The notes under the pieces were generated by a model, which saw only the letters and a program-made list of their open reading frames with translations, did no database searches and was not told the origin of the DNA. Positions 38,732 through 42,608 of a stretch of DNA of 64,000 nucleotides are shown one piece after another. Position 1 is the first letter of the stretch. The number at the start of each line of letters is the position of its first letter. The DNA comes from a virus (lineage: Duplodnaviria; Caudoviricetes). The translations under genes and the position numbers were made by a program. Where the stretch lies: IMG/VR virus record IMGVR_UViG_3300023218_000062, one strand, 5' to 3'.

Positions 38732-38786
38732 TATTTATATTATAGATTAATTAAGAACAAAATCTTGGTTGTTTTTCTGATAAATA
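38732..38786. promoter_or_regulatory. Divergent late promoters
   Basis: TATAAATA on minus (38732-38739); GATAAATA on plus (38779-38786, 27 nt before the ATG at 38813). Confidence 0.6.
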
Positions 38787-38812
38787 ATCTCATATTGATT
38801 ATCAAATTAAAA

Positions 38813-40150
38813 ATGAAAATACAAAATATATTTCAACTAGTAGAGCAGACTCTTATTGAAATCTCGAAATATGGTGGAGAATCTGCTACTCATATGACTG
38901 ATAACGATTATCAAAGAGTTAAACAATTTCTGGGTAAGGTATTAGAAAAAATTCGCACAGAAAGTGATACTAATAGTATGCACCTTAAAAATTTAGCTGC
39001 TGCTCTGCAAAGTATTAGAAATGAATCAGCAGAAAAATATATGTTTGGTATATCATCATCTATTAAAAAATCAGCCGCCAATTCAGCCGATAGAGAGGAT
39101 GATGAAAAAAGGATACCTGCATTTTCAGGGCCAGAAGAAAAGTGGAGATCCATTGGTACACGACAGGCAGAAAATGTGGCATTAGTAGCTGATGTATTAG
39201 ACGACATGGGGTACGCCAACAAAGATTATGAGAGAGAAACTTTTAGAATTATTGATAGTCCGGCCATTGCTAGGATACGAGATATAGTCCGTACTGGCTT
39301 TGATAATGGAATGTCTACTGTAGATCAAGCATATAAAAAATTTGATGATCTTAAACATATTTATTCCGGAAAATCAGAACATCGCTTACAACCAGAGGAA
39401 GAACAATTATATGACCAAGCTGCCGTTAAAGAAATAACACCCAACGTAATGTCATTTTTAGCACAAATCATAAAAAAGAGAAAAAAAGGTGAAAAATGGC
39501 ACGAACATATAGATCCTCGTAATTATGAAAACGTCCGAGATAAAACCATAGGATACTTTACATATGATCCACATGAGGCTGCAGAAGATTTAATAAAGTT
39601 GAATTTAGCTATAAAAACTAAATCTGGTACATATACTCTGAATAGGGAAGGAATCAAAAAAACAGTAAAAGATTTTATAGAAACTGCCGAATCTTTGTTA
39701 TCCGGAGCAACATTGGTTGACCCAAGAAATAAAACCGGAGCACCCGGAGAAAATGAACGAAAAGTTCGAAACGTTATAGAATTCACCAAAAAACATTTTT
39801 CGGACAGAGTGTGGGATATGGCACAAAAAAATGTTTTCGAACTTATGCGAAACTTAGATGGGTCTGTAAAGAGTGCTTTAAGATTTTATATACAAACCAA
39901 AGACGAAATTGCTTCTAATACTGATACTCAAATAACAAGACACCAAAGAAATGTTGAAAGAACTATCATAGGAACCGTAATAGATTTTGCAACAGCTAAG
40001 TTTATTTTACGTAAAATGTTGTTTGATGCATCAGCAGTACTTGGTAAACCCAAGAAAAATGTCCCTAAAAATTTCGTCTTCCCCAAAGATGTTGCACTTG
40101 CTGGAAGAGCATATAGTAGAGGAGATCATAAAAGTAAATCCAGAGTTTAA
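38813..40150 (+). CDS. Hypothetical late protein, possibly an internal head protein
   Basis: The ORF track starts at TTG 38765, but ATG 38813 fits the late promoter; N-terminus MKIQNIFQLVE. Confidence 0.7.
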   Translation: MKIQNIFQLVEQTLIEISKYGGESATHMTDNDYQRVKQFLGKVLEKIRTESDTNSMHLKNLAAALQSIRNESAEKYMFGISSSIKKSAANSADREDDEKRIPAFSGPEEKWRSIGTRQAENVALVADVLDDMGYANKDYERETFRIIDSPAIARIRDIVRTGFDNGMSTVDQAYKKFDDLKHIYSGKSEHRLQPEEEQLYDQAAVKEITPNVMSFLAQIIKKRKKGEKWHEHIDPRNYENVRDKTIGYFTYDPHEAAEDLIKLNLAIKTKSGTYTLNREGIKKTVKDFIETAESLLSGATLVDPRNKTGAPGENERKVRNVIEFTKKHFSDRVWDMAQKNVFELMRNLDGSVKSALRFYIQTKDEIASNTDTQITRHQRNVERTIIGTVIDFATAKFILRKMLFDASAVLGKPKKNVPKNFVFPKDVALAGRAYSRGDHKSKSRV

Positions 40151-40151
40151 A

Positions 40152-40190
40152 TTGACAACTCCCTTCCCTCCCTGAAGGAAGAGATCTTCT
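40152..40190 (-). mobile_element. Solo IS200/IS605-like right-end hairpin
   Basis: Minus strand AAGATCTCTTCCTTCAGGGAGGGAAGGGAGTTGTCAA: imperfect hairpin ending in GTCAA, like IS605-family right ends. Confidence 0.5.
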
Positions 40191-40214
40191 TTGCTTTTTT
40201 GATAACTACAAAAC

Positions 40215-40245
40215 TTGACACACCTATCTCAAGCATGTATAAATA
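40215..40245 (+). promoter_or_regulatory. Overlapping sigma70 and late promoter with no downstream ORF
   Basis: TTGACA (40215-40220)-17 bp-TATAAA, the -10 box being part of TATAAATA (40238-40245). Confidence 0.75.
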
Positions 40246-40247
40246 AT

Positions 40248-40590
40248 CCTGTTCCGGATTGTACATGAAATTCGGAGCGACTCACAATTTGGAAAATCTC
40301 GAACAGGCTGCGCATAACGATTTTGTAGACTGCCGGAACGAGCCGATACTACGATGAAAATGGTATCCTTGAAGTGCTCTAAGGTCTGGATGAGAGATTG
40401 ATACGCTGAATAAGGCTTACGAGATTAGTTGATAGTGTATCAAATCTGGACTCATCGAAACGTTGTCATCATTCATCGTGATGATAGGGGCTCTAGATCC
40501 ATTTGGATTGTGTGAGAGTCGGCGGTTGCTATCATGTAATGGCGATACCCTCAACGACAGTACGAGGGAATCACGCCGATCTGTCTAGGT
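40248..40590 (+). ncRNA. Candidate large structured ncRNA of unknown family
   Basis: ORF-free and GC-enriched; helices 40248-60/40295-307, 40345-51/40361-67, 40389-407/40434-56; three-way junction 40519-40579; loop GACAG pairs with CTGTC at 40581-40585. Confidence 0.7.
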
Positions 40591-40607
40591 TGGAGTGGGC
40601 AATTTCC

Positions 40608-40829
40608 TAATTAAAATTTAATTTTATTTTAATAAAAATGGGGGAGGGGAGGATTGTAAAAACTCTTAGAATTTAGGGTTTCAACTCTTAGAAATTTACT
40701 CTCAGAAGTTAAATCGAAAACAACAATTGTAAAAAAAGACAATAAAAATGCGAGCGTCAGCGAGTATTTTTATTGTCTCTCTCAAATGAAAACAATTTTA
40801 AATTTTCAGCCAAAAACTGCGTTTTTGAC
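40608..40829. other. Origin-like module
   Basis: 32-nt pure AT tract 40608-40639; GGGGGAGGGGAGG 40640-40652; ACTCTYAGAA x3; 13-bp perfect hairpin 40737-40778. Confidence 0.5.
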
Positions 40830-40862
40830 GGGAGTTCTTTTTACAAGAACTCCCTCTTCTTT
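40830..40862 (+). terminator. Intrinsic terminator-like hairpin
   Basis: GGGAGTTCTT-5 nt-AAGAACTCCC followed by TCTTCTTT. Confidence 0.65.
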
Positions 40863-40943
40863 ATTACTGGTATTATATGTAATAACATGATATAATAAAA
40901 TACCTGTACAATATGAAAGTATTTTTATAATTTGGAGAAATAA

Positions 40944-42608
40944 ATGTCTTTACTAAATGAAACTGAACTCTTAAATAAAAAAGAGGAAGAGCTTATAAAC
41001 AATTTAAAAACAAGAACCATAGACAATAGTTGGAGTACTATATTACCCAAATATTCGCCTAGAGATTCACAAAAACATGTAATGCAATGGATTAATGAAT
41101 TACCTGCAAATGTTAAATACGTGATGTGTGAGATGCCTGTAGGTGGAGGAAAATCGCCCCTCGCCATGGCATTTAGTGGTTACATCAATAATGGAATGGG
41201 AAATGCCTTTATAATGACACCACAAAAGACATTGCAACGTCAATACGAAGAATCATTTGAAAAAGAAATATTAGCATCGGTATACGGGCGTAATAATTAT
41301 AAATGCGAATCAAAAAATACTACATGTGATGTTGGTTCTGATATAAAACCCAAATGTGAATCATGCCCTGCAAGTCAAGCCAGAGAAATAGCTTTAGCTT
41401 CACCTAATATGATTTTAAATTATAGTATTGCATTGACATATTTTAAGTACCTCAGACATAAAATACCTGCACGGGATGTCATGATATTTGATGAATGCCA
41501 TGTATTGGAATCACATTTGGTAGAATTCAGTTCATTGAATATTAGCAAGAATATGTGTAAGAAATATTTAGTAAAATTCAAAAAGCCGAAAGATTCTGAT
41601 GATGCTATTCATTTTTTGGAAAATGTATATCATCCTGCTGTATGTGAAAAAATTAGTGAATACAGAAAACACATAATGCAATTAGAGAATTCTTTTACCA
41701 ATAAGTTATCTAAGGCCGATATTAAAGTAATAAAAGCCTACAAGGCTGCTACAGAGCATAGAGACACAATTCAAGAGGTATTATCTACTGATAGAAAGTA
41801 TTTTGATAGAAAGTATGTTCTCATCGTAGATAATGATTACTTTAAATTTAAAGAATTATTTGGTAAAAACAATTTTAGAAATTTATGCTTGCCTAAAGCT
41901 AATAGGTTTTTATTCATGTCTTCTACAATATTGGATAAAGAAGGTTTCTGTAATGATTTAGGCATTGATCCTGAAGAAGCTGCAATGATTTCGGTAGATT
42001 CAGAATTTAATGTAGAAAACCGAGAAGTGGTATATAAACCCATTATAAAAATGAATTATGGATGGCATAGCCAAGAGCGATCCAATGATAGAAAGAAAAT
42101 GATTAAAACAATAAATCATATCTGTAATCATCATAAAGACGAATCAGGTATAATTCATACTGGAAGTTTTCAAGTATCAGATTGGATATTACATGCCATT
42201 GATGATACCCCACATGAAATAGTCCATCATAATCCTAGTGGTGAACGATCTAGAGATGATGCAATTGAATATTTTTTGGAGAATTCTCAATTGAGGCCAA
42301 TGATATTGGTTTCACCTTCTGTTACTGAGGGTATGGATTTGAAGGATGATCGTGCTAGATTTGGAATCATTACCAAGGTTCCATATCCATTCTTGGGTGA
42401 TGCATGGGTTAAAAGACGCATGCAACTGTCCAAAGATTGGTATAACCGTCAGGCTATTACAGGAATAATTCAGGGTTGTGGGCGTGTTGTACGATCCAAA
42501 GAAGATTGGGGACAGGTATATATCCTTGATGAGTCGTTTTCATATCTTTATAAACAGACGGTAAAGATGATCCCTCAATGGTGGAAAGACGGACTAATTG
42601 TACTCTAA
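40944..42608 (+). CDS. SF2 DinG/XPD-like helicase
   Basis: Motif I EMPVGGGKS, II DECH, III SST, V SPSVTEGMDL, VI QGCGRVVRS; Cys cluster C..C..C..CP. Confidence 0.9.
   Translation: MSLLNETELLNKKEEELINNLKTRTIDNSWSTILPKYSPRDSQKHVMQWINELPANVKYVMCEMPVGGGKSPLAMAFSGYINNGMGNAFIMTPQKTLQRQYEESFEKEILASVYGRNNYKCESKNTTCDVGSDIKPKCESCPASQAREIALASPNMILNYSIALTYFKYLRHKIPARDVMIFDECHVLESHLVEFSSLNISKNMCKKYLVKFKKPKDSDDAIHFLENVYHPAVCEKISEYRKHIMQLENSFTNKLSKADIKVIKAYKAATEHRDTIQEVLSTDRKYFDRKYVLIVDNDYFKFKELFGKNNFRNLCLPKANRFLFMSSTILDKEGFCNDLGIDPEEAAMISVDSEFNVENREVVYKPIIKMNYGWHSQERSNDRKKMIKTINHICNHHKDESGIIHTGSFQVSDWILHAIDDTPHEIVHHNPSGERSRDDAIEYFLENSQLRPMILVSPSVTEGMDLKDDRARFGIITKVPYPFLGDAWVKRRMQLSKDWYNRQAITGIIQGCGRVVRSKEDWGQVYILDESFSYLYKQTVKMIPQWWKDGLIVL

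Follow-up and report, generated by a model that had tools for sequence, protein, structure and literature searches.

A conserved module of covarying hairpins and a purine tract between a large structured phage RNA and a DinG-like helicase gene

Introduction

What lies between a large structured RNA and the helicase gene next to it in an uncultured T4-like phage: an origin of DNA replication, or a further part of the RNA gene? The question is raised by a gene-free gap of 793 bp (40151-40943) in the window, by which is meant the whole stretch of viral DNA analysed here, 64 kb in length. The gap houses a promoter, the large RNA and, downstream of the RNA core, a series of short elements referred to below as the module. 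A reading made from the sequence alone had taken these elements for an RNA-primed replication origin, with an AT tract as unwinding element, a G tract as the anchor of an RNA-DNA hybrid, iteron-like repeats and a hairpin. In the present analysis the same elements were followed through related phages, and their conservation, pairing, strand and neighbours were compared.

Results

Setting of the locus

The neighbourhood is that of a T4-like phage, with gp46/47-like SbcCD subunits, a gp55-like late sigma factor, a RuvC-like resolvase and a baseplate hub. The features of the gap and of its two flanks are listed in order.

38765-40150, + strand: open reading frame of 461 aa, left flank of the gap, without a function by family search
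40215-40245, + strand: promoter of the RNA gene, with TTGACA at 40215-40220, a 17-nt spacer and TATAAATA at 40238-40245
40253-40600, + strand: core of the large structured RNA, with metatranscriptome contigs at 40284-40599 and 40392-40600
40586-40609, + strand: hairpin H0, stem UAGG/CCUA closing a conserved 16-nt loop UUGGANNGGGNAAUUU
40610-40633, + strand: hairpin H1, which is the AT tract, with an 8-bp stem AUUAAAAU/AUUUUAAU and an 8-nt loop
40634-40663, + strand: conserved purine tract AAAAAUGGGGGAGGGGAGG, then conserved AUUGUAAAAAC, both from the 17-lineage comparison
40653-40736, + strand: A-rich, G-poor spacer, with ACTCTYAGAA three times, at 40662, 40684 and 40698
40737-40778, + strand: hairpin H2, a 14-bp AU-rich stem with a tip of C-G, tandem G.A/A.G, G-C, C-G and the loop GUCA
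40811-40827, + strand: 7-bp hairpin CAAAAAC/GTTTTTG, common only to the window and its closest relative (L011), not conserved
40830-40864, + strand: terminator-like GC hairpin of 10 bp with a T-rich tail, stem at 40830-40854
40891-40896, + strand: TATAAT, the -10 element of the helicase gene's own promoter, as read from the sequence
40944-42608, + strand: Rad3/DinG/XPD-like helicase gene (phrog_2488 at 6e-113; PF13307 and PF04851 in homologues)

For the 461-aa protein on the left, searches of PHROG, Pfam and Atlas gave no assignment and IMG/VR yielded no relatives; nothing in these results pointed to an initiator. On the right, the helicase gene does adjoin the module, as had been noticed; it starts at 40944, and its product is Rad3/DinG/XPD-like. 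The module is enclosed by a block of + strand genes (36.5-42.7 kb), and the gene map of the window has its strand switches at ~36.4, ~42.8 and ~47.9 kb, so that transcription does not diverge at the module itself, contrary to what had been supposed. Nor was a GC-skew inflection found at 40.6 kb, the sign of the skew following gene orientation exactly throughout the 64-kb window.

Database searches did not place the RNA or the module. A blastn search of 40100-41000 against GenBank phages gave zero matches, and a search for tRNA or tmRNA found none. Rfam returned 0 matches over the whole window at gathering thresholds; with E values up to 10, the interval 40000-41000 yielded only sub-threshold hits at chance level, the best scoring 22.5 bits against a gathering threshold of 60. 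By these searches the large RNA is a member of no described family, and the module likewise fits no known RNA family.

The module across 17 lineages

In total, 17 independent lineages, all of them uncultured T4-like phages, were compared. They came from IMG/VR and a pattern scan of JGI metagenomes, from contigs coding for helicase homologues (55-93% identity), and from a search by the G-tract motif, through which five distant lineages with helicases 44-51% identical were gained; overall, the identity of the DinG/XPD-like helicases to that of the window spans 44-93%. Further matches to the G-tract pattern (L022, L023, L025-L027, L030-L032, L034 and L036) proved unrelated, and several of them are plain terminators or parts of coding regions.

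The RNA core motifs, the module and a same-strand helicase gene directly downstream occur together in 17/17 lineages, the five distant ones included. H1, the purine tract and H2 keep one order in these independent lineages, and the distance from the module to the helicase gene is always 250-330 nt. On this comparison the module elements exceed chance, since they recur in a fixed order across all 17 lineages. The proposal that the module is coupled to the structured RNA as a real functional unit is thus borne out by co-conservation in fixed order, whatever the function of the unit may be.

Hairpin H2 and the strand on which it acts

The 13-bp perfect stem (40737-40749/40766-40778) that had been described as presenting GCGAGCGTCAGCGAG is present and reaches 14 bp with a G.U pair, and its loop sequence occurs once in the window. 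Covariation was measured on an unforced MAFFT alignment of nine lineages, in which 96.7% of the cells were paired and 12 of 18 pairs had changed on both sides, a result equalled by 0 of 500 shuffles. When the partner was slid by 1-3 columns as a control, pairing fell to 37-52%. The covariance model R1 found H2 in exactly one copy per locus in 274 kb. By these measures H2 is the best-supported element of the module.

The tip of the hairpin is built on a common plan in the different lineages, with an R.U pair, a C-G pair and tandem G.A/A.G pairs (or G.A, G.G/G.U, A.G), above which follow an R-Y pair covarying between G-C and A-U and a further C-G pair. The loops seen are GUCA, GUUA, GUA and GAA, that is, a GNA/GNNA cap. 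Interchange between a GNA triloop and a GNYA tetraloop is unusual in RNA families.

The non-canonical pairs carry information on the strand. At the pair adjoining the tip, 6 lineages have G.U and 7 have A-U, and the tandem G.A pairs would read C.U/U.C on the opposite strand. Together, the G.U and G.A pairs imply that H2 works in single-stranded nucleic acid of the + strand, for which RNA, as a transcript from the promoter at 40215, would be the simplest carrier. Fold z-scores are strong on both strands (-4.2 and -5.7) and so offer no strand discrimination. A terminator or small RNA of the minus strand was also considered for H2 and was rejected, as the A run before H2 is unconserved and the G.U and G.A pairs fit the + strand only.

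The tip of H2 contains GCGTCAGC at 40754-40761. The strict motif GCGNNAGC/GCGNAGC stands at the tip in 9/17 lineages, in the forms GCGTCAGC, GCGTTAGC, GCGTAGC and GCGAAGC; a variant at the closing position is found in 6 more (A-T in five of them, an A.A mismatch in L028), and 2 differ altogether. Bare GCGN(N)AGC is not rare in the window, with 23 sites against ~12 expected, and only its conservation at the tip of H2 was counted. The stability of this mini-hairpin motif is extraordinary in DNA and lower in RNA; it occurs at the origins from which G4, St-1 and alpha3 start primase-dependent synthesis of the complementary strand, at ssiA of RSF1010 and in the hairpin promoters of N4, GCGTTAGC being the octamer of St-1 and alpha3 (PMC13037366, a 2026 review). 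The match between the H2 tip and the mini-hairpins of primase origins is a resemblance.

Hairpins H0 and H1

The stem of H0 covaries among lineages, in which UAGG/CCUA, CGG/CCG, AAG/CUU, GAG/CUC, GGG/CCC and GAGGC/GCCUC were found. Beside it, the 32-nt tract of 100% A/T (40608-40639) is present as described from the sequence, but its proposed role as a conserved unwinding element is not borne out in the relatives. The slot between CCUAA and AAAAUGGGGG, which in the window is occupied by this tract, folds end to end as a hairpin in 15/17 lineages, with stems that are unrelated from lineage to lineage (for example AUCAUCC/GGAUGAU, GUUGAU/AUCAAC and CUAAUAU/AUAUUAG) and a mean z-score of -2.7 against dinucleotide shuffles. 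The GC content of H1 ranges from 0 to 0.43 across lineages, so that AT-richness is not the conserved property; what the relatives share is a hairpin with a covarying stem, with GC up to 43%.

The purine tract

The G tract GGGGGAGGGGAGG was found at 40640-40652, as had been reported. AAAAUG followed by a run of at least 5 G occurs in 17/17 lineages, most of them continuing with AGGGAG, and a conserved UNUAAAAAC follows the purine tract. Judged by this alignment, the G tract is the most conserved part of the module, although the length of the G run differs among lineages (G5AGAG, G6AGA, G8 and G9). The tract contains a strong GGAGG, which is a very strong Shine-Dalgarno look-alike.

The purine tract is probably single-stranded, in that the comparison yielded no conserved pairing partner. 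Pairing with a 5' pyrimidine run was tested with negative outcome: for the long-range helix between the G tract and the pyrimidine run before GAACAGGCUGC that was predicted by RNAalifold, cognate pairs were no stabler than non-cognate ones (permutation p=0.81). Two other candidates were rejected. Pairing of ACAAUUU (40284) with GGAUUGU (40652) is available in the window and its closest relative and in no other lineage, and pairing of UUUCCU (40603-40608) with the G tract, which appears in many single-sequence folds, conflicts with the covarying stem of H0.

The spacer and its repeats

The three copies of ACTCTYAGAA at 40662, 40684 and 40698 were confirmed, and they are the sole exact copies in the 64-kb window. 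They amount to three 10-11-mers spaced by 22 and 14 nt, and the longest repeat of the window's spacer, 11 nt, has p=0.018 against dinucleotide shuffles. Across lineages, the spacer varies from 37 to 90 nt with an A content of 0.29-0.59 and a G content of 0.04-0.15. Repeated 7-mers in the spacers total 105 against 36 +/- 7.5 expected, being significant in ~8/17 lineages, and their sequences are unrelated. The identification of the repeats as iterons is not upheld, for they are lineage-specific, and neither sequence nor spacing nor presence is conserved.

Promoter, RNA ends and downstream elements

Upstream of the RNA core stands a sigma-70-like promoter, the -10 element of which, TATAAATA, also fits the T4 late consensus. 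It was missed by a consensus promoter scan because position 6 of the -10 element is A, and the same architecture is seen in the relatives. The promoter is followed by the RNA core of ~350 nt, which is GC-richer and free of open reading frames and the motifs of which are conserved in all relatives.

Of the two metatranscriptome contigs, which come from separate studies, one ends at 40599 and the other at 40600. Both ends are inside the loop of H0, upstream of the module, and they precede the G tract by ~40 nt rather than follow it. A DNA contig of another run extends to 40896, past these ends. The coincidence gives a weak hint that the abundant RNA species may exclude the module, a hint that is weakened further by the DNA contigs of a fourth run, which also break at 40601-40604. 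The coincident ends were the only RNA-contig evidence used; the missing RNA cover over 40601-40943 was not counted. No RNA runs turned up for 40601-40900 taken alone, which was given no weight in either direction.

Downstream of H2, the 7-bp hairpin and the terminator-like stem that had been noticed in the window are both present, the latter with a T-rich tail after it, and neither is general. Among the relatives, L012 alone has a terminator comparable to that of the window; those of L020 and L024 are weaker, and in most lineages none precedes the helicase gene. In 15/17 lineages the interval from the RNA promoter to H2 showed no intrinsic terminator; the hits of the terminator scan in L013, L015 and L020 lie inside the structured RNA and were read as RNA helices. 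As there is no clear terminator after H2 save in the window and L012, read-through into the helicase gene is likely. Sigma-70-like promoters precede the helicase gene in the relatives as well as in the window.

Discussion

The stretch is best read as a transcribed 3' extension, or leader, of the large phage RNA gene, acting as single-stranded nucleic acid of the + strand, and this reading is given about an even chance of being right. An R-loop origin, a leader switch of the helicase gene and a translated mini-ORF come after it, in that order. The 3' extension is favoured because H2, H1 and H0 show covariation or consistent pairing, because the pairs of H2 are strand-specific and because the linkage to the core and the helicase gene is fixed; it is favoured also because the hallmarks of a DNA origin, namely AT-richness and repeats, are unconserved. 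Conservation, covariation, strand specificity and a fixed order are established by the comparison, as are the linkage to core and helicase gene and the absence of a terminator between them. The following course of events is proposed.

Transcription would start from TTGACA-N17-TATAAATA, pass through the ~350-nt core and continue into the module. The module would then fold into H0, H1, an exposed purine tract (AAAAUGGGGGAG...), an unstructured A-rich spacer and H2 with its tandem G.A tip, and in most relatives, which have no terminator, the same transcript would reach the DinG-like helicase gene. The stable core would probably be freed by a cut in or near the loop of H0, a presumed processing site. 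The remaining piece could serve as a docking platform for a protein or for the 30S subunit, both of them candidate partners, with the H2 tip as a specific recognition or stability element. Control or stabilisation of the helicase message downstream, or of the 3' end of the RNA itself, might be the role of such a platform.

Three observations stand against a 3' extension: the RNA contigs end at 40599 and 40600 (a weak hint), the tip of H2 is a DNA mini-hairpin motif with an interchange of loops that is unusual for RNA, and neither a pairing nor a binding partner was found for the purine tract.

The foremost alternative, a refined form of the reading made from the sequence alone, is a putative RNA-primed R-loop origin, which is considered unlikely. 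By analogy with ColE1 RNA II and CSB II, the purine tract would hold an RNA-DNA hybrid with the pyrimidine-rich template, H2 would fold on the displaced + strand with its mini-hairpin tip signalling the loading of primase or helicase, and the DinG-like helicase would act on the R-loop. The retention of the purine tract in 17/17 lineages, the motif at the H2 tip (9/17 strict and 6 variants) and the conserved synteny with the helicase would all suit an origin, and the stop of the RNA contigs ~40 nt upstream of the G tract is a weak hint in the same direction; the frequent G.U at one pair of H2, however, suits RNA better than DNA. Lineage-specific direct repeats in about half of the spacers recall T4 oriE, which has an early promoter and direct repeats, but they are absent or non-significant in ~9/17 lineages. 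A strand switch lies ~4 kb off, and T4 oriE, oriF and oriG are also near such switches; against an origin, the GC skew of the window mirrors gene orientation without an inflection at 40.6 kb. The R-loop origins of T4 need a promoter and an immediate unwinding element; here the AT tract is not kept AT-rich, and 350 nt of folded RNA come in between. The -10 element TATAAATA, moreover, suggests late as well as early expression.

Regulation of the helicase gene in cis is rated quite improbable. Read-through would carry the module as a 5' leader, in which the purine tract and H2 would be the site for a regulator, which might be the helicase, or would change between alternative pairings, and so set read-through into, or translation of, the helicase gene. 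The constant position of the module, 250-330 nt upstream on the same strand with no terminator between in most lineages, is what such a leader would look like, but in those relatives that were inspected a separate promoter for this gene follows the module. The minimum-energy fold of the window, which pairs the G tract with the pyrimidine-rich 3' arm and tail of the terminator at 40830-40854, resembles an anti-terminator; this fold is of little weight, as any purine tract pairs with any pyrimidine tract by means of G.U, and conservation extends neither to the terminator nor to its complementarity with the G tract.

Translation of a mini-ORF or leader peptide from the AUG at 40638, or from an AUU/AUG five nt after the first GGAGG, with the act of translation rather than the product being what matters, is hardly credible: the AUG is invariant in 17/17 lineages within an otherwise pure purine tract that holds a strong GGAGG, and every lineage is open from it for 5-31 codons beginning MGEG... 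or MGG..., yet no Shine-Dalgarno sequence lies upstream of the AUG, neither length nor sequence is kept beyond four residues, and indels of lengths not divisible by three change the reading frame but leave the nucleotide motif UNUAAAAAC intact, which points to conservation at the nucleotide level. The frame is thus not kept, and the purine tract, as far as the alignment tells, is not a conserved ORF.

Returning to the 3' extension, the RNA gene reaches beyond its GC-rich core, a second conserved module accompanying the core down to 44% helicase identity. This module consists of two or three covarying hairpins, a purine tract and a tandem G.A tip and is always beside the DinG-like helicase gene. 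As handles on the function of the RNA it offers the specific tip of a hairpin, the exposed purine tract and a site at which processing is likely. If this RNA reading is true, the locus adds a further large phage RNA with a modular 3' domain, and it is a caution against calling AT tracts, G tracts and short repeats origins without comparative data. If the origin reading is true instead, the locus would be the first T4-like phage origin set by a conserved structured RNA together with a conserved single-strand DNA signal, and a primer system like RNA II or CSB II in a T4-like jumbo phage clade. To our knowledge, no sequence-defined, RNA-primed origin is known in T4-like phages, and T4's own origins share no motif.

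Comparison with known systems

Like T4, the present phage has homologues of gp46/47 and gp55. The likeness to the origins of T4 is limited. At oriF and oriG, a MotA middle promoter, with its MotA box at -30, is directly followed by an AT-rich unwinding element, the whole spanning ~100 bp and having no sequence specificity (PMC3016281). The promoter here is of the type TTGACA-N17-TATAAATA, sigma-70-like or late-like and with no MotA box seen; the AT tract lies 390 nt past the promoter, behind the ~350-nt folded RNA, and its AT-richness is unconserved, whereas the elements that are kept are specific in sequence and structure. By promoter type, intervening RNA and unconserved AT-richness the locus falls outside the oriF/oriG type. 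The origin oriE requires an early promoter and contains 12-nt repeats at even spacing, the role of which is undefined, and several T4 origins, including oriE, oriF and oriG, are situated near strand switches (PMC3016281). A sigma-70-like promoter of the early mode is nearby in the present case too, its -35 and -10 elements being conserved in relatives; in contrast to the evenly spaced 12-mers, there are three 10-11-mers at 22/14 nt which are unconserved across lineages, although spacer repeats as such are enriched overall and significant in ~8/17 lineages. The locus resembles oriE only loosely. From an origin of the iteron type, as in lambda or plasmids, it differs in that the repeats and the AT tract are unconserved and the upstream 461-aa protein matches no family.

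In ColE1 RNA II and at mitochondrial LSP/CSB II, a long folded transcript starts at a dedicated promoter and contains a G-rich run some hundreds of nt downstream. A G-rich segment downstream of a dedicated promoter is likewise found in 17/17 lineages, and G5AG4AG2 of the window resembles G6AG8 of CSB II. In contrast to CSB II, the sequence after the tract is A-rich, not G-rich, and the variable length of the G run (G5AGAG to G9) does not allow a uniform hybrid G-quadruplex. The G tract is the one feature on which this analogy with ColE1 RNA II and CSB II depends.

Strand-specific hairpins with a GCGNNAGC/GCGNAGC tip connect the module with G4, St-1, alpha3, ssiA of RSF1010 and the promoters of the N4 vRNAP. 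The elements of the G4/St-1/alpha3 type act on single-stranded DNA genomes or as extruded hairpins, while the present phage is a double-stranded T4-like one. In addition, and different from the mini-hairpin origins, the motif stands here on top of an AU-rich stem of 14 bp that has tandem G.A pairs and in which one pair is often G.U.

As an RNA gene, the locus has counterparts in the large 'ornate' RNAs ROOL, GOLLD, OLE and raiA of bacteria and phages, with which it shares a promoter-driven, ORF-free RNA of several hundred nt, encoded by a phage genome, with a structure supported by covariation and of unknown function. It is set apart from them by the lack of an Rfam match and by the conserved downstream module of H0, H1, purine tract, spacer and H2. 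We know of no fixed DinG-like helicase neighbour for ROOL, GOLLD, OLE or raiA.

For the purine tract, a parallel is provided by STAB-SD of Bacillus cryIIIA and the 5' stabiliser of phage SP82, in which a strong, untranslated Shine-Dalgarno sequence stabilises the transcript. The tract of the module differs from STAB-SD in being internal rather than near a known 5' end, unless cleavage at H0 makes one; what it has in common with STAB-SD and the SP82 stabiliser is a strong GGAGG in a purine tract of a non-coding transcript, with no conserved ORF behind it.

Expression of the RNA core

The core of the large structured RNA (window 40284-40600) was recovered as contigs of ~95% identity in two salt-lake metatranscriptome runs (X19 and X20) from two studies. 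Flanking gene sequence was not attached to these contigs, which suggests that the core RNA is more abundant than its neighbours.

Helicase gene and the sequence preceding it

The DinG-like helicase, usually ~554 aa, reaches 901-903 aa in one lineage. The added residues belong to an intein carrying a homing-endonuclease domain (PF05204, PF05203 and PF14528), inserted after approximately residue 60 of the helicase, close to the Walker A region.

L001 1744-4455: intein-bearing helicase, also found in L002 and L005-L008 (proteins P0009 and P0022)

In many lineages, a short motif lies downstream of the covarying hairpin H2, either AAAUGAAAA or a stretch of A and then of T; this motif may represent an UP-element-like portion of the helicase promoter.

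Window 40779-40800: AAAUGAAAA or A run then T run, also following H2 in L010, L011, L024, L029 and L035

Outlying loci

The phage locus L019, whose helicase shares 58% identity with that of the window, bears three tandem copies of TATACAAGA (L019 1-30) ~200 nt upstream of the helicase gene, with GCGAAGC present on the opposite strand. The G tract and H2 were both absent from the 220 nt available for this locus. At L022 5301-5340, the G-tract pattern matched by chance, and the locus is not related to the family; the tract there belongs to an ordinary terminator, of which it forms the 5' arm, and a GIY-YIG homing-endonuclease-like ORF comes next.

Promoter of the RNA and the tract upstream of it

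Upstream of the RNA promoter and 3' of the upstream ORF, a pyrimidine-rich tract (CTCCCTTCCCTCCC) with a hairpin occupies window 40160-40205, and 12-bp pairing between this tract and the G tract is possible. A 40-nt piece of the region (40166-40205) recurs within a single lake metagenome run, where three separate contigs carry it, so the piece may represent a terminator-like repeat.

The -10 element of the RNA promoter is the full octamer TATAAATA (window 40238-40245), preceded by a good TTGACA -35 element, and the octamer is kept at the same promoter position in L001, L009, L011-L013, L015-L017 and L020. Since TATAAATA is also the consensus of T4 late promoters, the promoter sequence is consistent with dual expression, in which the large RNA may be transcribed early by means of sigma-70 and also late by means of gp55.
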